In this document: in pieces, positions 1,936-14,705 of the stretch | Layout of the letters: each line of letters opens with the position of its first letter | Numbering within the stretch: position 1 is the first letter of the stretch | UHGV virus genome: UHGV-0209998 | Origin: a virus | DNA length: 20,997 nt | Strand: one strand, 5' to 3' | Translations under genes and position numbers: made by a program | Notes under the pieces: model-generated | What the model saw: only the letters and a program-made list of their open reading frames with translations | Told to the model about the DNA's origin: nothing | Databases searched by the model: none

Positions 1936-1974
1936 AGCCTAATAACTCGGGCTATAAACTAAGGAATATCTATG
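1936..1974 (+). promoter_or_regulatory. Candidate gene 43 autogenous translational operator (hairpin plus Shine-Dalgarno)
   Basis: RNA hairpin with a 5 bp stem (AGCCU 1936-1940 / GGGCU 1949-1953, one G-U pair) and an 8 nt loop AAUAACUC, followed by AAGGAA and the ATG at 1972. This matches the known architecture of the T4 gp43 operator; a TATAAT-like hexamer lies at 1922-1927. Confidence 0.5.
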
Positions 1975-4668
1975 AAAGAATTTTATATCTCTATCGAAAC
2001 AGTCGGAAATAACATTGTTGAGCGTTATATTGATGAAAACGGAAAGGAACGTACTCGTGAAGTAGAATATCTTCCGACTATGTTTAGGCATTGTAAGGAA
2101 GAGTCAAAATACAAAGACATCTATGGTAAAAATTGTGCTCCTCAAAAATTTCCATCAATGAAAGATGCACGAGACTGGATGAAGCGAATGGAAGACATCG
2201 GTCTCGAAGCTCTAGGTATGAACGATTTTAAACTCGCTTATATCAGTGATACATACGGTTCAGAAATTGTTTATGACCGAAAATTTGTTCGTGTAGCTAA
2301 CTGCGACATTGAGGTTACTGGTGATAAATTTCCTGACCCAATGAAAGCAGAATATGAAATTGATGCTATCACCCATTATGATTCAATTGACGATCGTTTT
2401 TACGTCTTTGATTTGTTGAATTCAATGTATGGTTCAGTATCAAAATGGGATGCAAAATTAGCTGCTAAGCTTGACTGTGAAGGTGGTGATGAAGTTCCTC
2501 AAGAAATTCTTGACCGAGTAATTTATATGCCATTTGATAATGAGCGTGATATGCTCATGGAATATATTAATCTCTGGGAACAGAAACGACCTGCTATTTT
2601 TACTGGTTGGAATATTGAGGGATTTGACGTTCCGTATATCATGAATCGTGTTAAAATGGTTCTCGGTGAACGTAGTATGAAACGCTTCTCTCCAATCGGT
2701 CGAGTAAAATCTAAACTAATTCAAAACATGTACGGTAGCAAAGAAATTTATTCTATTGATGGCGTATCTATTCTTGATTATTTAGATTTGTATAAGAAAT
2801 TCGCGTTTACTAATTTGCCGTCATTCTCTTTGGAATCAGTTGCTCAACATGAAACCAAAAAAGGTAAATTACCGTACGATGGTCCTATTAATAAACTTCG
2901 TGAGACTAATCATCAACGATACATTAGTTATAACATCATTGACGTAGAATCAGTTCAAGCAATCGATAAAATTCGTGGGTTTATCGATCTGGTTTTAAGT
3001 ATGTCTTATTACGCTAAAATGCCTTTTTCTGGTGTAATGAGTCCTATTAAAACTTGGGATGCTATTATTTTTAACTCATTGAAAGGTGAACATAAGGTTA
3101 TTCCTCAACAAGGTTCGCACGTTAAACAGAGTTTTCCAGGTGCATTTGTATTTGAACCTAAACCGATTGCTCGTCGATATATTATGAGTTTTGACTTAAC
3201 TTCTCTGTATCCGAGCATTATTCGTCAGGTTAACATTAGTCCTGAGACTATTCGTGGTCAGTTTAAAGTTCATCCAATTCATGAATATATCGCAGGAACA
3301 GCTCCTAAGCCAAGTGATGAGTATTCTTGTTCTCCGAATGGATGGATGTATGATAAGCATCAAGAAGGTATCATTCCAAAGGAAATCGCTAAAGTATTTT
3401 TCCAACGTAAAGACTGGAAAAAGAAAATGTTCGCCGAAGAAATGAATGCCGAAGCTATTAAAAAAATTATTATGAAAGGCGCAGGGACTTGTTCAACTAA
3501 ACCAGAAGTTGAACGATATGTTAAGTTCAATGATGATTTCTTAAATGAACTATCGAATTACACCGAATCTGTTCTTAATAGTTTGATTGAAGAATGTGAA
3601 AAAGCTGCTACACTTGCTAATACAAATCAGCTGAACCGTAAAATTCTTATTAACAGTCTTTATGGTGCTCTTGGTAATATTCATTTCCGTTACTATGATT
3701 TGCGAAATGCTACTGCTATCACAATTTTCGGCCAAGTTGGTATTCAGTGGATTGCTCGTAAAATTAATGAATATCTGAATAAAGTGTGTGGAACTAATGG
3801 TGAAGACTTCATCGCAGCTGGTGACACTGATTCGGTATATGTTTGTGTAGACAAAGTTATTGAAAAAGTAGGTCTTGACCGCTTTAAAGAACAAAATGAT
3901 TTAGTTGAATTCATGAATCAGTTCGGTAAGAAAAAGATGGAACCGATGATTGATGTTGCATATCGTGAGTTATGTGATTATATGAATAACCGCGAGCATC
4001 TGATGCATATGGACCGTGAAGCAATTTCTTGTCCTCCACTTGGTTCAAAGGGTGTCGGTGGTTTTTGGAAAGCGAAAAAGCGTTATGCTTTGAATGTTTA
4101 TGATATGGAAGATAAGCGATTTGCTGAACCACATCTAAAAATCATGGGTATGGAAACTCAACAGAGTTCAACACCAAAAGCAGTGCAAGAAGCTCTCGAA
4201 GAAAGTATTCGTCGTATTCTTCAGGAAGGTGAAGAGTCTGTCCAAGAATATTACAAGAACTTCGAGAAAGAATATCGTCAACTTGACTATAAAGTTATCG
4301 CTGAAGTAAAAACTGCGAACGATATAGCGAAATACGATGATAAAGGTTGGCCAGGATTTAAATGCCCGTTCCATATTCGTGGTGTGCTAACTTATCGTCG
4401 AGCTGTTAGTGGTTTAGGTGTAGCTCCAATTTTAGATGGAAATAAAGTAATGGTTCTTCCATTACGTGAAGGAAATCCATTTGGCGATAAGTGTATTGCT
4501 TGGCCATCTGGCACAGAACTTCCAAAGGAAATTCGTTCTGACGTACTGTCTTGGATTGACTACTCAACTTTGTTCCAAAAATCGTTTGTTAAACCACTTG
4601 CGGGTATGTGCGAATCAGCAGGTATGGACTATGAAGAAAAAGCTTCGTTAGACTTCCTGTTTGGCTGA
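1972..4668 (+). CDS. 43: DNA polymerase gp43 (family B, with 3'-5' exonuclease)
   Basis: 898 aa ORF. Exo I motif (VANCDIEV), polymerase motif A (DLTSLYPSII), motif C (AAGDTDSVYV) and KKRY (KAKKRYAL) are all visible. Near-identical to T4 gp43 as recalled. Confidence 0.97.
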   Translation: MKEFYISIETVGNNIVERYIDENGKERTREVEYLPTMFRHCKEESKYKDIYGKNCAPQKFPSMKDARDWMKRMEDIGLEALGMNDFKLAYISDTYGSEIVYDRKFVRVANCDIEVTGDKFPDPMKAEYEIDAITHYDSIDDRFYVFDLLNSMYGSVSKWDAKLAAKLDCEGGDEVPQEILDRVIYMPFDNERDMLMEYINLWEQKRPAIFTGWNIEGFDVPYIMNRVKMVLGERSMKRFSPIGRVKSKLIQNMYGSKEIYSIDGVSILDYLDLYKKFAFTNLPSFSLESVAQHETKKGKLPYDGPINKLRETNHQRYISYNIIDVESVQAIDKIRGFIDLVLSMSYYAKMPFSGVMSPIKTWDAIIFNSLKGEHKVIPQQGSHVKQSFPGAFVFEPKPIARRYIMSFDLTSLYPSIIRQVNISPETIRGQFKVHPIHEYIAGTAPKPSDEYSCSPNGWMYDKHQEGIIPKEIAKVFFQRKDWKKKMFAEEMNAEAIKKIIMKGAGTCSTKPEVERYVKFNDDFLNELSNYTESVLNSLIEECEKAATLANTNQLNRKILINSLYGALGNIHFRYYDLRNATAITIFGQVGIQWIARKINEYLNKVCGTNGEDFIAAGDTDSVYVCVDKVIEKVGLDRFKEQNDLVEFMNQFGKKKMEPMIDVAYRELCDYMNNREHLMHMDREAISCPPLGSKGVGGFWKAKKRYALNVYDMEDKRFAEPHLKIMGMETQQSSTPKAVQEALEESIRRILQEGEESVQEYYKNFEKEYRQLDYKVIAEVKTANDIAKYDDKGWPGFKCPFHIRGVLTYRRAVSGLGVAPILDGNKVMVLPLREGNPFGDKCIAWPSGTELPKEIRSDVLSWIDYSTLFQKSFVKPLAGMCESAGMDYEEKASLDFLFG

Positions 4669-4680
4669 TAGAATAAATCT

Positions 4681-4702
4681 AGGGACCTCCGGGTCCCTTT
4701 TT
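4681..4702 (+). terminator. Rho-independent terminator after gene 43
   Basis: Stem GGGACC (4682-4687) / GGTCCC (4692-4697) with loop TCCG, followed by TTTTT (4698-4702). Confidence 0.7.
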
Positions 4703-4785: not shown

Positions 4786-4814
4786 TTTACATCTCTGTTC
4801 TTCCATGGTACTAT
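4786..4814 (+). promoter_or_regulatory. Early (sigma70-type) promoter
   Basis: -35 TTTACA (4786-4791), 17 nt spacer, TGg extended -10 TACTAT (4809-4814); about 35 nt upstream of the ATG at 4849. Same pattern recurs at five other sites. Confidence 0.5.
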
Positions 4815-4848: not shown

Positions 4849-5085
4849 ATGAAAATTGTTTATGGTTGTTTAGCAATGTGTTTAGTTGCATTAGCAACTG
4901 TTCCATTTATTGATATTGAAAATGACACTCAGAATGTGATTGAATCTAATACTATTATTCACATGAATGGGAAAGTATCAACTAAAATTGGTGATAATCT
5001 TCATATGAATACTAACGGATCTTTAGGTGTTCAATTAGGGAATACATGTGTGAGCACTACAGGTGTAATTACTACTTGCATTTGA
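4849..5085 (+). CDS. Hypothetical secreted/membrane protein (78 aa), upstream of imm (imm.1 position)
   Basis: ATG at 4849 with GGAG 6 nt upstream; the track ORF start at 4837 is TTG. Hydrophobic N-terminus MKIVYGCLAMCLVALATVPF is signal-peptide or TM-like. Confidence 0.6.
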   Translation: MKIVYGCLAMCLVALATVPFIDIENDTQNVIESNTIIHMNGKVSTKIGDNLHMNTNGSLGVQLGNTCVSTTGVITTCI

Positions 5086-5095
5086 GGAAATTGTT

Positions 5096-5476
5096 ATGAA
5101 AATCGCTATTTTGGTTATTGCATTGGGTCTTACTGGTTGTGTAGCTCAAGGACCGGTAGTAAATCAATCTGATGTAGGAAAAATTGTAAACTGCTCAAGC
5201 AAATTTTATAATCCTAATGTCAAGTGTTATAAAGAAGCTCCGAAGCAGACAGTAGAGCAAATGCAGGCGAATTTTGACGAAGCTATTCGCCCAGATGAAT
5301 CTGCTCAAGCATATCGTAATTCAGATGTAATTACACACGAAGAAAAAATTGAAAATTATTGCGCTGAACTTTGGGCAAATTGGGCTAATAATTACCAATG
5401 GCGTACAGGTAAAAATGCTCCGATGGAGTATGTGGTGAATTCTTATAATTCATGTGTAAAAAATTTGACTAAGTGA
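5096..5476 (+). CDS. Predicted lipoprotein (126 aa)
   Basis: ATG at 5096 preceded by GAGGAAA. N-terminus MKIAILVIALGLTGC has a lipobox (LTGC); the mature part carries 6 further Cys. Confidence 0.7.
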   Translation: MKIAILVIALGLTGCVAQGPVVNQSDVGKIVNCSSKFYNPNVKCYKEAPKQTVEQMQANFDEAIRPDESAQAYRNSDVITHEEKIENYCAELWANWANNYQWRTGKNAPMEYVVNSYNSCVKNLTK

Positions 5477-5483
5477 GGAAAAT

Positions 5484-5735
5484 ATGGAAACTTTAGTAGC
5501 AGGTTCAATTTTTATGGTTTTAGTTTCAGGCGTGTTGGCTATTATTATATACATGCTTCCATGGTTCATTGCCTTGATGCGTGGGTCAAAATCGACAGTA
5601 GGAATCTTTTTCACGTCTTTACTGTTTAACTGGTCAATTATCGGTTGGTTTATTACATTTATTTGGTCAATTGCTGGTGAAACTAAAAAGTCTGCACAGC
5701 CAAATCAGGTAATTATCATCAGAGAGAAAGAATGA
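5484..5735 (+). CDS. imm: Imm superinfection immunity membrane protein
   Basis: 83 aa with two predicted TM helices (METLVAGSIFMVLVSGVLAIIIYMLPWFIAL... and LLFNWSIIGWFITFIWSIAG). Size and position between 43 and 42 match T4 Imm. Confidence 0.8.
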   Translation: METLVAGSIFMVLVSGVLAIIIYMLPWFIALMRGSKSTVGIFFTSLLFNWSIIGWFITFIWSIAGETKKSAQPNQVIIIREKE

Positions 5736-5881
5736 AAAGCAAAATTATAGCAGTGTTGCTTTTAATCTTGATGGTTATAATAAGTATATACTATAGCGTA
5801 ACAGTTCCTGTTATGATTCCAACTCTTATCATAGGGTGGGGTTTATTACTGTTACAATTTAAATATGAATGCATCAATTGA
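5732..5881 (+). CDS. Small hydrophobic protein (49 aa), not in the supplied ORF track
   Basis: ATG at 5732 overlaps the imm stop (ATGA). Translation MKSKIIAVLLLILMVIISIYYSVTVPVMIPTLIIGWGLLLLQFKYECIN is almost entirely TM-like. It fills the gap to gene 42, whose ATG follows 8 nt later. Confidence 0.45.
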   Translation: MKSKIIAVLLLILMVIISIYYSVTVPVMIPTLIIGWGLLLLQFKYECIN

Positions 5882-5888
5882 GGTTTAA

Positions 5889-6629
5889 ATGATTAATGAC
5901 TCTATGACAGTTGAAGAAATCCGTCTTCATTTAGGACTTGCATTAAAGGAAAAAGATTTCGTAATTGATAAAACTGGTGTTAAAACTATTGAAATTATTG
6001 GCGCATCATTTGTAGCAGATGAACCCTTTATTTTTGGTGCTCTTAATGACGAATACATTCAGCGTGAACTTGAATGGTACAAGTCTCAAAGTCTGTTTGT
6101 TAAAGATATTCCAGGTGAAACACCAAAGATTTGGCAGCAGGTAGCATCTTCTAAAGGCGAAATTAACTCGAATTATGGTTGGGCTATTTGGTCAGAAGAT
6201 AACTATGCCCAGTATGATATGTGCTTAGCTGAACTTGGTCAAAATCCTGATTCTCGACGTGGTATCATGATTTATACTCGCCCATCTATGCAGTTTGACT
6301 ACAACAAAGACGGCATGTCAGATTTCATGTGTACTAATACAGTACAGTACCTGATTCGTGACAAGAAAATCAATGCAGTTGTTAGCATGCGCTCAAATGA
6401 CGTGGTCTTCGGATTCCGTAATGATTATGCATGGCAAAAATACGTACTAGATAAATTAGTATCTGATTTGAATGCAGGCGATTCAACTCGTCAGTATAAA
6501 GCAGGTTCTATTATATGGAATGTTGGAAGTCTTCATGTATATTCCCGTCATTTTTACTTGGTTGATCATTGGTGGAATACTGGCGAAACTCATATTATGA
6601 AAAAAGATTATAACGGTGAGTGGAAATGA
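5889..6629 (+). CDS. 42: dCMP hydroxymethylase gp42 (thymidylate synthase fold)
   Basis: 246 aa; sequence MINDSMTVEEIRLHLGLALKEKDF... matches T4 gp42 from memory; GAGG SD upstream. Confidence 0.93.
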   Translation: MINDSMTVEEIRLHLGLALKEKDFVIDKTGVKTIEIIGASFVADEPFIFGALNDEYIQRELEWYKSQSLFVKDIPGETPKIWQQVASSKGEINSNYGWAIWSEDNYAQYDMCLAELGQNPDSRRGIMIYTRPSMQFDYNKDGMSDFMCTNTVQYLIRDKKINAVVSMRSNDVVFGFRNDYAWQKYVLDKLVSDLNAGDSTRQYKAGSIIWNVGSLHVYSRHFYLVDHWWNTGETHIMKKDYNGEWK

Positions 6630-9073: not shown

Positions 9074-10501
9074 GTGGTAGAAATTATTCTTTCTCATCTC
9101 ATATTTGATCAAGCTTATTTTTCAAAAGTTTGGCCATATATGGATTCAGAATATTTTGAAAGTGGTCCAGCTAAAAATACGTTTAAATTAATTAAATCTC
9201 ATGTCAATGAGTACCATAGCGTTCCATCTATTAATGCGTTAAATGTTGCATTAGAAAATAGTTCATTTACTGAAACAGAATATTCTGGTGTAAAAACACT
9301 TATTTCAAAATTGGCTGATTCTCCAGAAGACCACAGTTGGTTAGTAAAAGAAACAGAAAAATATGTTCAGCAAAGGGCGATGTTTAATGCTACGTCTAAA
9401 ATAATTGAAATTCAAACCAATGCTGAGCTTCCTCCGGAAAAACGAAATAAGAAAATGCCGGATGTAGGTGCTATTCCTGACATCATGCGACAAGCATTAT
9501 CAATTTCATTTGATAGTTACGTTGGTCATGATTGGATGGATGACTATGAAGCACGTTGGCTATCTTATATGAATAAAGCTCGTAAGGTTCCATTTAAACT
9601 AAAAATTCTGAACAAAATTACTAAAGGCGGAGCTGAGACTGGAACACTAAATGTTTTAATGGCTGGCGTTAACGTTGGTAAGTCATTAGGATTGTGTTCA
9701 CTAGCAGCGGATTATTTACAGCTTGGACATAATGTTCTTTACATTTCCATGGAAATGGCTGAAGAAGTCTGTGCTAAGCGTATTGATGCTAATATGCTTG
9801 ATGTTTCTCTTGATGACATTGATGATGGGCATATTTCTTACGCTGAGTATAAAGGAAAAATGGAAAAATGGCGTGAGAAATCTACTCTCGGTCGTTTAAT
9901 TGTTAAACAGTATCCTACTGGTGGAGCAGATGCTAACACATTCAGGTCTCTCTTGAATGAATTGAAGCTCAAGAAGAATTTTGTTCCAACAATCATTATT
10001 GTCGACTATCTGGGTATTTGTAAATCGTGCCGCATCCGAGTTTATTCAGAAAATAGTTACACAACTGTTAAAGCTATTGCAGAGGAATTACGTGCTCTAG
10101 CTGTTGAAACTGAAACTGTTCTTTGGACTGCAGCACAGGTTGGTAAGCAAGCTTGGGACTCTTCTGATGTTAACATGAGTGATATCGCAGAATCTGCTGG
10201 TCTTCCAGCGACAGCTGATTTTATGCTTGCGGTCATTGAAACCGAGGAGTTAGCAGCAGCTGAACAGCAACTCATTAAGCAAATCAAATCACGATATGGT
10301 GATAAGAATAAATGGAATAAGTTTTTAATGGGTGTTCAAAAAGGAAACCAGAAATGGGTAGAAATTGAGCAAGATTCTACTCCAACTGAAGTGAATGAAG
10401 TGGCAGGTTCGCAGCAGATTCAGGCTGAGCAGAATCGCTATCAAAGAAATGAATCGACTCGAGCTCAGTTAGATGCTTTGGCGAATGAATTAAAATTTTA
10501 G
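9074..10501 (+). CDS. 41: gp41 replicative helicase (DnaB-like)
   Basis: 475 aa; Walker A AGVNVGKS. GTG start at 9074 is the first start codon after the in-frame gene 40 stop, with AAGGAG 5 nt upstream. Matches T4 gp41 from memory. Confidence 0.95.
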   Translation: MVEIILSHLIFDQAYFSKVWPYMDSEYFESGPAKNTFKLIKSHVNEYHSVPSINALNVALENSSFTETEYSGVKTLISKLADSPEDHSWLVKETEKYVQQRAMFNATSKIIEIQTNAELPPEKRNKKMPDVGAIPDIMRQALSISFDSYVGHDWMDDYEARWLSYMNKARKVPFKLKILNKITKGGAETGTLNVLMAGVNVGKSLGLCSLAADYLQLGHNVLYISMEMAEEVCAKRIDANMLDVSLDDIDDGHISYAEYKGKMEKWREKSTLGRLIVKQYPTGGADANTFRSLLNELKLKKNFVPTIIIVDYLGICKSCRIRVYSENSYTTVKAIAEELRALAVETETVLWTAAQVGKQAWDSSDVNMSDIAESAGLPATADFMLAVIETEELAAAEQQLIKQIKSRYGDKNKWNKFLMGVQKGNQKWVEIEQDSTPTEVNEVAGSQQIQAEQNRYQRNESTRAQLDALANELKF

Positions 10502-11004: not shown

Positions 11005-11033
11005 TTTACTTTTGTTGGAAATTGAGATACTAT
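11005..11033 (+). promoter_or_regulatory. Early promoter upstream of sp
   Basis: -35 TTTACT (11005-11010), 17 nt spacer, -10 TACTAT (11028-11033). Confidence 0.5.
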
Positions 11034-11061: not shown

Positions 11062-11355
11062 ATGAAAAAATTTATCTTTGCTACAATTTTTGCTTTAGCT
11101 TCTTGTGCTGCTCAGCCTGCTATGGCAGGCTATGATAAAGATTTGTGTGAATGGTCTATGACTGCGGATCAGACTGAGGTTGAAACCCAGATTGAAGCAG
11201 ATATTATGAATATCGTTGAGCGCGATCGCCCTGAAATGAAAGCTGAAGTGCAAAAACAGCTTAAATCTGGCGGTGTAATGCAGTATAATTATGTTCTGTA
11301 TTGCGATAAAAACTTTAATAACAAAAATATCGTAACCGAAATCACAGGCGAATAA
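11062..11355 (+). CDS. sp: Spackle-like periplasmic protein (97 aa precursor with signal peptide)
   Basis: N-terminus MKKFIFATIFALASCAAQPAMAG is a cleavable signal or lipobox; 97 aa and the position between dmd and 61 match T4 sp (61.3); GAGGAG SD. Confidence 0.65.
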   Translation: MKKFIFATIFALASCAAQPAMAGYDKDLCEWSMTADQTEVETQIEADIMNIVERDRPEMKAEVQKQLKSGGVMQYNYVLYCDKNFNNKNIVTEITGE

Positions 11356-14676: not shown

Positions 14677-14705
14677 TTTACATATCAAAATGGGTATGGT
14701 ATAAT
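14677..14705 (+). promoter_or_regulatory. Early promoter
   Basis: -35 TTTACA (14677-14682), 17 nt spacer, TGg + TATAAT (14700-14705). Confidence 0.55.

Follow-up and report, generated by a model that had tools for sequence, protein, structure and literature searches.

Do the small genes packed around the superinfection immunity gene imm of T4-like phages help to seal the infected cell, or does Imm act there by itself? T4 superinfection exclusion is a textbook system that is usually explained by two proteins, Imm and Spackle. We considered this question for a stretch of 20,997 nucleotides from the virus genome UHGV-0209998 (the window), in which four consecutive small genes lie between gene 43 (DNA polymerase) and gene 42 (dCMP hydroxymethylase). 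They are tightly packed in the order 43, orfA (78 amino acids, aa), imm.1 (126 aa), imm (83 aa), 42.1 (49 aa), 42. An initial annotation, made from the sequence alone, had described them as an envelope-targeted cassette and had suggested the products of imm.1 and 42.1 as additional exclusion factors. The region is very probably the canonical, known imm locus of a T2/T6-like Tequatrovirus, an early transcription unit of envelope proteins. The identity of the locus is secure, and its biology is ordinary and well catalogued. Among the four genes, imm is the one with a demonstrated mechanism, and Imm.1 is a well-motivated, testable candidate for a part in exclusion.

A search with the 1220 bases that separate genes 43 and 42 matched 523 phage records, and in 465 of them most of the query is covered, at 90-97% identity. 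With few exceptions these records are Tequatroviruses of Escherichia, Shigella and Yersinia, the closest being phage JoYop (97.4%), and the same gene order is found in hundreds of Tequatroviruses at 94-97% DNA identity. Seven loci came from a locus scan of IMG/VR. We also made the comparison with T4 imm.1 and its neighbours that the initial annotation had proposed. The T4 imm.1-imm locus (NP_049661, NP_049660) and RB14 gp42.1 (YP_002854379) represent the corresponding genes, in an identical order between 43 and 42. Imm.1, Imm and 42.1 are all present in T4, with amino-acid identities to the window proteins of 98%, 99% and 86%, respectively, and the terminator, the early promoter and the P42 promoter are common to both loci. 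The window differs in its additional gene, orfA, between the promoter and imm.1; in the alignment, T4 and RB14 lack it. The gene for beta-glucosyl-HMC-alpha-glucosyltransferase (HMC, hydroxymethylcytosine) comes after gene 42, and the phage is therefore T2/T6-like rather than T4 itself. All four genes are present in GenBank annotations, in hundreds of phage genomes, and in Pfam or PHROG families, and so they are not the new candidates that they were first taken to be.

The four ORFs (open reading frames) were recovered on the + strand where the initial annotation had placed them (Table 1), and hydropathy, motifs and conservation agree with its proposal that all four products are envelope-directed. 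Signal-peptide and lipoprotein calls were based on hydropathy, motif rules and conservation. A Shine-Dalgarno sequence (GGAG or GAGG) lies 5-8 nt upstream of orfA, imm.1 and imm. Among the 24 window ORFs preceded by such a sequence, those with a hydrophobic N-terminus are orfA, Imm.1, Imm, Spackle and an ORF at 9732-9899 that is probably spurious; 42.1 is not caught by this filter. Only ~5 envelope-directed genes occur in the 21-kb window, and the four that are contiguous here form a genuine cluster, since few of the other ORFs are of this kind. The word cassette nevertheless overstates their unity, because the insertion that carries orfA is optional. Against NCBIfam and PADLOC, the four proteins gave sub-threshold noise only.

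Imm and the early transcription unit

The assignment of Imm as a known superinfection immunity factor was borne out. Imm matches PF14373 (Imm_superinfect) with 58.2 bits (gathering threshold 27.9; E = 7.7e-16) and phrog_1039, 'immunity to superinfection', with E = 3.6e-32. It is 99% identical to T4 Imm over 83/83 residues and has the same flanking genes, 43 and 42. The protein is hydrophobic over residues 1-38 and 39-69. The ratio omega of nonsynonymous (dN) to synonymous (dS) substitution rates is <=0.06 for imm, and a search of the PDB with the Imm sequence gave no meaningful match. How Imm works became clear only with a preprint of 2026. In it, a fragment of the tape-measure protein (gp29 residues 205-518) co-purified with T4 Imm, the loop between Imm helices 2 and 3 contacted the helical-bundle domain of gp29, and the W50A and R33A substitutions lowered exclusion (bioRxiv 10.64898/2026.03.06.709160). 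The window Imm carries both R33 and W50. By its identity to the T4 protein, for which others have demonstrated exclusion through gp29 binding, it would reside in the inner membrane and bind gp29 of a superinfecting T-even phage, so that the DNA conduit could not form. The preprint authors liken Imm to HK97 gp15 and to colicin immunity proteins (bioRxiv 10.64898/2026.03.06.709160), which also act in the inner membrane and block an incoming pore-forming or tape-measure component. These proteins are unrelated to Imm in sequence, and the likeness has no bearing on Imm.1, 42.1 or orfA.

The claim that the genes have their own early promoter after a gene 43 terminator was confirmed. The intrinsic terminator hairpin after gene 43 is near-identical in T4, RB14 and 4E10, the T4 stem having a 1-nt deletion and one substitution, and the records of phages G4507 and SA21RB list it as a terminator. 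The promoter scores 9 of 12 in a generic sigma-70 scan, which found 8 sites when 8.0 are expected and is thus uninformative. It is an exact match to the T4/PST early-promoter consensus TTTACW-N17-TAYWAT (PMC4122927). This consensus occurs 3 times in the window, all on the coding strand, compared with an expectation of 0.17, and none of 100 shuffled sequences reached 3. The early promoter is also kept in T4, RB14 and 4E10. Of the two other matches, one (11005-11033) lies 29 nt upstream of spackle and the third is at 14677-14705.

The hairpin and the promoter form a PeSL-like terminator/promoter unit. As in the PeSL cassettes of T4-type phages, a hairpin and an exact early promoter precede a small ORF that not all phages carry. 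Here, however, the hairpin and the promoter are ~90 bp apart, and the orfA indel is bounded by an 8-bp microhomology, ATGAAAAT, at both start codons rather than by two PeSL copies. We propose that the early promoter would drive the small envelope-protein genes within the first minutes of infection. In a T4 time course, the imm.1 and imm RNAs were both classed as early; at the protein level, Imm.1 was detected and followed early kinetics, and Imm followed middle kinetics (PMC9697503 supplement).

A second promoter, the MotA-dependent middle promoter P42, lies inside 42.1. Its MotA box TGCTT is found ~12 bp upstream of TATAAT, as belongs to a T4 middle promoter. The T4 P42 start site was mapped experimentally at 26320 (PMC2988021, Table 1). 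This position is 56 nt into the T4 42.1 ORF and would correspond to ~5788 in the window. A promoter similar to P42 is annotated in phage SA21RB.

Table 1. Features between genes 43 and 42 of the window, with the flanking genes
Feature	Position	Strand	Description
Gene 43	1972-4668		DNA polymerase gp43; upstream flank
Terminator	4681-4698	+	Intrinsic hairpin AGGGACC-TCCG-GGTCCCT, then T-run; 7 bp stem, 5 G-C
Early promoter	4786-4814	+	T4-type: TTTACA, 17 nt, TACTAT, TG extended -10; between gene 43 and orfA
orfA	4849-5085	+	Accessory protein, 78 aa; predicted N-terminal signal peptide or signal anchor; C-terminal Cys67/Cys77 pair; phrog_4189
Direct repeat, left copy	4849-4856	+	ATGAAAAT, 8 bp; bounds orfA indel
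Direct repeat, right copy	5096-5103	+	ATGAAAAT, 8 bp; start of imm.1
imm.1	5096-5476	+	Predicted periplasmic lipoprotein, 126 aa; DUF5481 (PF17578), phrog_1754
imm	5484-5735	+	Inner-membrane superinfection immunity protein, 83 aa; PF14373, phrog_1039
42.1	5732-5881	+	Membrane micro-protein, 49 aa; phrog_3610; name from RB14
P42	5757-5781	+	MotA-dependent middle promoter inside 42.1; MotA box TGCTT at 5757, -10 TATAAT at 5776-5781
Gene 42	5889-6629	+	dCMP hydroxymethylase; downstream flank; 96-99% identical to T4 and relatives

Imm.1 as a candidate exclusion factor

Imm.1 matches DUF5481 over the whole profile (positions 1-103 of 103) with 236.8 bits (cut-off 27). Its hydrophobic N-terminus ends in the lipobox LTGC (residues 12-15), with Cys15 as the potential lipidation site and Val at the +2 position. 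In the E. coli sorting rule, a residue other than Asp at +2 predicts sorting to the outer membrane, and the +2 residue in this family is never Asp. Imm.1 has five cysteines in total (15, 33, 44, 89 and 120), and hence four beyond the lipobox instead of the six further ones first counted. In divergent DUF5481 members, C89 and C120 are invariant, and C33 and C44 occur as a pair or are missing as a pair. Such a pattern suggests two likely disulfides and therefore an oxidising, periplasmic location. The lipobox Cys is kept in 5/6 divergent sequences. The sixth, P0004, has a classical cleavable signal in its place (SAHA/SDK, cleaved at the slash), which puts the DUF5481 domain in the periplasm either way and implies that one lineage or more can do without the anchor. 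In our model, Imm.1 would leave the cytoplasm, receive a lipid at Cys15 and reach the outer membrane, where disulfides C33-C44 and C89-C120 would hold a small helical domain on a flexible tether.

Imm.1 is under strong constraint. Compared with its relatives it shows dN of 0.003-0.010, dS of 0.21-0.28 and omega of 0.01-0.04, which indicates selection as strong as that on the polymerase (omega is <=0.01 for gp43 and 0.03-0.11 for gp42, used as controls). Across ~500 Tequatrovirus records, T4 and the window phage included, it is 96-100% identical. The family itself is tiny and, by our searches, confined to T-even-like phages: homologues form 3 clusters in an index of 5.8 billion proteins, and an exhaustive search of 1.84 billion proteins yielded 7 representatives at 50% identity. 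The Imm.1 profile gave no match below E = 0.07 among PDB sequences. The RefSeq label of T4 imm.1, 'iduronate sulfatase', found no Pfam support and appears unfounded. A weak match (E ~1e-4, six stretches) was seen in a 1434-aa protein, P0007, in which 29 residues (638-666) align with residues 80-108 of Imm.1, a Trp/Asn-rich helix; it may be low-complexity or repeat similarity.

The imm.1 gene repeatedly accompanies imm. Mosigvirus SHSML-52-1 has the order dmd, small ORF, imm.1-like, imm, spackle, ~10 kb from gene 43, and its imm.1-like protein is 33% identical to Imm.1 and has the lipobox LTGC. Adjacency of imm.1 and imm was also found at two more Mosigvirus-type loci (L014, L015). This order indicates that imm.1 and imm were relocated as a pair and ended up beside spackle, the other known exclusion gene. 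In addition, a lipobox protein whose C-terminal part has two Cys 31-48 residues apart is encoded beside gene 43 in six further genera. It adjoins imm in three of them, the order being 43, lipoprotein, imm, 42 in Klebsiella phage Roth01, Moonvirus NM4.3 and Gelderlandvirus STP4-a. In Dhakavirus JS10 (43, imm, 42.1, lipoprotein) it is two genes from imm, and in the Serratia phage X20, a Winklervirus, the order is 43, lipoprotein, SIS gene, 42.1. These positional lipoproteins are linked to one another by a chain of weak pairwise similarities.

On these grounds, namely its near-invariance, its early expression and its recurrent association with imm (in Mosigvirus also with spackle), the most likely function of Imm.1 is, tentatively, a periplasmic accessory role in exclusion or envelope protection. 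A more specific and rather doubtful version is that Imm.1-type lipoproteins are a third, hitherto unrecognised and periplasm-tethered component of T-even superinfection exclusion. Imm.1 might intercept something conserved in the tail tip of the incoming phage, such as gp5, gp27 or the emerging tape-measure protein, or it might position or stabilise Imm; in a weaker extension, 42.1 could be a partner micro-protein in the inner membrane. If true, this third-component role would explain both the presence of a lipoprotein gene by gene 43 in six further Tevenvirinae genera and the contiguous imm.1, imm and spackle genes in Mosigvirus. It would also add a periplasmic component to the T-even model of cell sealing and give a conserved, long-unassigned gene a function.

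One known protein to compare with Imm.1 is T4 Spackle (gp61.3), the periplasmic inhibitor of the gp5 tail lysozyme. Like Imm.1, it is small, early and exported. The Spackle fold is a compact bundle of helices with a disulfide (PMC7677548); for Imm.1, a helical structure is predicted and the Cys pairs are conserved. The spackle and imm.1 genes flank imm in Mosigvirus, and both loci have the T4 early-promoter consensus in the window. The two proteins differ in that no similarity beyond the signal peptide and no fold match was detected between them. Moreover, cleavage turns Spackle into a soluble protein, whereas the prediction for Imm.1 is a lipid anchor. In the window, spackle (97 aa, phrog_1586) is located at 11062-11355 on the + strand, 5.3 kb downstream of imm.

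Several observations weigh against an exclusion role for Imm.1. Plasmid-borne Imm alone excludes T4 (bioRxiv 10.64898/2026.03.06.709160), and so the neighbours of imm are not required for its activity. No experiment or paper giving Imm.1, 42.1 or orfA a function was found in the literature, and nothing on the function of Imm.1 or DUF5481. The linkage has exceptions as well: X20 keeps the positional lipoprotein and 42.1 and has no imm in the ~20 kb examined, no lipobox protein occurs among the three ORFs checked around imm in Morganella phage MP1, and 42.1 and imm are ~10 kb apart in Mosigvirus. The hhalign alignment of DUF5481 with the positional lipoproteins spans 37 N-terminal columns only, i.e. 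the signal peptide and ~20 residues, and in a control the signal peptide alone gave a spurious profile match to spackle. Full-length homology is thus unsupported, and we treat these proteins as positional analogues, not as proven homologues, because the alignment is confined to the signal-peptide region. The lipobox expression [LVI][ASTVI][GAS]C also matches LASC at residues 12-15 of Spackle, whose mature form is a soluble 75-aa periplasmic protein after cleavage (PMC7677548). This match to a signal peptidase I substrate warns that the expression by itself can mislead, so that lipidation of Imm.1 is likely but predicted only. Finally, AF2 models of Imm.1 built from the single sequence and from a 6-sequence alignment are helical from residue 53 on with a low-confidence predicted local distance difference test (pLDDT) score of ~63 in both cases, and a Foldseek search of the PDB with this low-confidence model returned nothing below E = 4. 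We therefore draw no fold-based inference for Imm.1.

It is accordingly quite conceivable, if somewhat short of an even chance, that Imm.1, 42.1 and orfA are envelope proteins unrelated to exclusion and that their proximity to imm is historical synteny. Their roles might lie in envelope stabilisation, in lysis timing or lysis inhibition, or in countering a host envelope defence, and 42.1 could be tied to DNA-modification genes. Besides the ability of Imm to act alone and the gene content of X20, two further points agree with such a role: our searches gave no similarity to any known exclusion or defence protein, and 42.1 sits after a SIS gene and before nucleotidyl-transferase or kinase genes in Mosigvirus and Winklervirus, and before gene 42 in Tequatrovirus. 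Mere synteny would sit less easily with the joint move of imm.1 and imm next to spackle in Mosigvirus, with the lipoprotein adjoining imm in three more genera and lying two genes off in a fourth, and with the early production of Imm.1, which it shares with spackle. A tie of 42.1 to DNA modification would also be hard to square with its nature, since it is not obvious what a membrane micro-protein would do in the soluble chemistry of nucleotides or sugars. The initial proposal of Imm.1 as an additional exclusion factor is therefore weakly supported: imm.1 stays next to imm in two genomic contexts, and Imm works without it.

An improbable alternative is that Imm.1 is a receptor-masking outer-membrane lipoprotein that binds the receptor from the periplasm and stops further adsorption. 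T5 Llp and Cor of phi80 and N15 are such small phage lipoproteins, which protect the infected or lysogenic cell. Imm.1 resembles them in its small size, its early expression, its lipobox with a non-Asp +2 residue and hence predicted outer-membrane sorting, and its place beside a known exclusion gene. It has no detectable homology to them and is not known to affect adsorption, and no sequence or fold match to solved structures was found with the low-confidence model. T4 and T2/T6-like phages use different outer-membrane receptors, and T-even exclusion is reported to act after adsorption. A receptor binder would be expected to vary with the receptor, whereas Imm.1 is near-invariant among these phages. 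Masking is less likely for this reason, and also because the relative P0004 has no lipid-anchor Cys.

42.1, orfA and a further small ORF

The 49-aa ORF 42.1 was identified as a genuine, conserved gene, as the initial annotation had suspected. It matches phrog_3610 over profile positions 1-47 of 47 (E = 2.7e-26) and is 96% identical to RB14 gp42.1, and homologues at 82-90% identity carry a precomputed PF26865 match. A tblastn search found it in 580 phage records. In T4 it lies at complement 26227..26376 (86% identical) and is unannotated in NC_000866 and AF158101; a practical point is thus that a conserved gene is absent from the T4 reference annotation. In the protein, a proline-rich turn lies between two hydrophobic stretches (~5-22 and 26-41). 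Members occur in Tequatro-, Mosig-, Dhaka- and Winklervirus, those outside Tequatrovirus being 45-47 aa long, and across the four genera the motif PxMIPT...W...QxK[YF]xC[FI]N is invariant. Between genera, amino-acid identity is 45-62% and omega 0.15-0.29, with dS saturated (1.4-3.1); the overall range of omega is 0.15-0.5.

The start codon of 42.1 overlaps the imm stop codon (ATGA) with no strong Shine-Dalgarno sequence, and the Shine-Dalgarno sequence of gene 42 in turn overlaps the 42.1 stop codon. The ATG overlaps the upstream stop by 4 nt in all four genera, irrespective of the upstream gene, which is imm in Tequatrovirus and Dhakavirus and a SIS-domain sugar isomerase gene in Mosigvirus and Winklervirus. 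Since the P42 middle transcript starts inside 42.1, the full-length protein can be translated only from an early read-through transcript. Universal translational coupling, together with the invariance of the C-terminal motif, speaks for a real micro-protein of the inner membrane. We envisage 42.1 as a two-segment inner-membrane hairpin that would be coupled in translation to the upstream gene on the early read-through transcript. The suggestion that it is a further exclusion factor has fared less well, since Mosigvirus and Winklervirus do not keep it linked with imm. It is not tied to Imm as a specific partner, and its function is probably not imm-specific.

Two observations concern the annotation and the surroundings of 42.1. 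In the JS10 record (L005 2456-2593), the 42.1 homologue is annotated from an internal start at 2483 as a 36-aa protein; read from the ATG at 2456, it has 45 aa and, like its counterparts in the other genera, a 4-nt overlap with the upstream stop, here that of imm. In Mosigvirus, Winklervirus and Dhakavirus (L006 1818-4323, L004 1824-4326, L005 3132-4835), the slot downstream of gene 43 holds other genes, which encode a SIS-domain sugar isomerase (absent in JS10) and a ~560 aa nucleotidyl-transferase fused to a kinase-like domain. They replace gene 42 and the glucosyltransferase gene, 42.1 is embedded among them, and they presumably belong to another pathway for the sugar modification of hydroxymethylcytosine.

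The orfA gene is an optional member of the locus. It was found in 326 phage records, all T4-like and with one copy per genome, which is about two thirds of the 502 records with a T4-type imm.1. T4 and RB14 align with the window up to GGAGAAT(A/G)AAATGAAAAT and then run straight into the imm.1 coding sequence; the window continues with orfA and then returns to ATGAAAAT at the start of imm.1. The two arrangements therefore differ by an indel of 247 bp. An 8-bp direct repeat, which spans both start codons, bounds it, and this clean microhomology boundary is a useful residue of the analysis. We propose that orfA was gained or lost by recombination at the ATGAAAAT repeat and would be expressed from the promoter at 4786 through its promoter-proximal ribosome-binding site.

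The orfA protein belongs to phrog_4189 (E = 8e-26), matches no Pfam family, and a PDB search with its profile gave no meaningful match. Its hydropathy shows a single N-terminal hydrophobic stretch that ends at A-L-A/T. The mature part of ~62 aa is rich in Asn, Thr and Gly, and contains an invariant Cys77 and a nearly invariant Cys67. Compared with divergent alleles, dN is 0.14-0.16, dS 0.42-0.50 and omega ~0.3, with a full range of omega of 0.07-0.53. Its protein divergence is 15 to 40 times that of the neighbours, with dS somewhat higher. It is under constraint yet evolves fast, and its alleles probably represent old lineages. These features describe orfA as an optional, variable and small protein that is likely periplasmic.

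Lipidation of orfA at Cys7 or Cys11 was considered and rejected: both are replaced in divergent alleles and the segment before them is too short, so that the window allele is not a lipoprotein. Some alleles (P0012, P0017 and P0019) have 7-residue tandem duplications of the LAVCLVA type in the N-terminal hydrophobic core, which in P0012 produces the lipobox LAAC. Some alleles, unlike that of the window, may therefore be lipoproteins, and the LAAC-creating duplication may account for the UniRef label 'Lipoprotein' on orfA. A likeness to class II microcins, through the C-terminal Cys loop, was likewise dropped; the N-terminus is of the Sec type and is not a double-glycine leader, and searches gave no support.

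That neither orfA nor 42.1 is a gene, orfA being a chance ORF and the 150 bp between imm and gene 42 being conserved merely for P42, is very hard to maintain and is largely refuted by conservation: both ORFs are short, 42.1 is unannotated in the T4 reference records, lacks a strong Shine-Dalgarno sequence and contains a mapped middle promoter, but its frame, ATGA coupling and motif are kept across four genera with differing flanking genes, it falls in phrog_3610 and has homologues with PF26865, and orfA has a GGAG ribosome-binding site, a frame that is intact in 321/326 records at >=80% coverage, omega of ~0.3 and 27 invariant residues.

Two minor observations relate to orfA. A terminator-like hairpin, TAGTTGC-ATTA-GCAACTG, with a weak T-run is found at 4883-4900 (+) within its signal-peptide coding part and is probably a chance match. 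In Shigella phage CT01 (L017 1209-2046), just the middle of orfA (residues 28-64) is recognisable, and the annotated ORFs overlap the end of gene 43 and extend into imm.1, which suggests a disrupted or fused orfA or a sequencing frameshift.

Another small ORF of the window, 73 aa long and a member of phrog_3826, is located between regA and gene 43 (1672-1893, +) and is followed by a GC-rich hairpin, AAGGGGC-TTCG-GCCCCTT, at ~1896-1913. At this position T4 has a 78-bp gap with no annotated gene, and phage JoYop annotates the 73-aa ORF as hypothetical.

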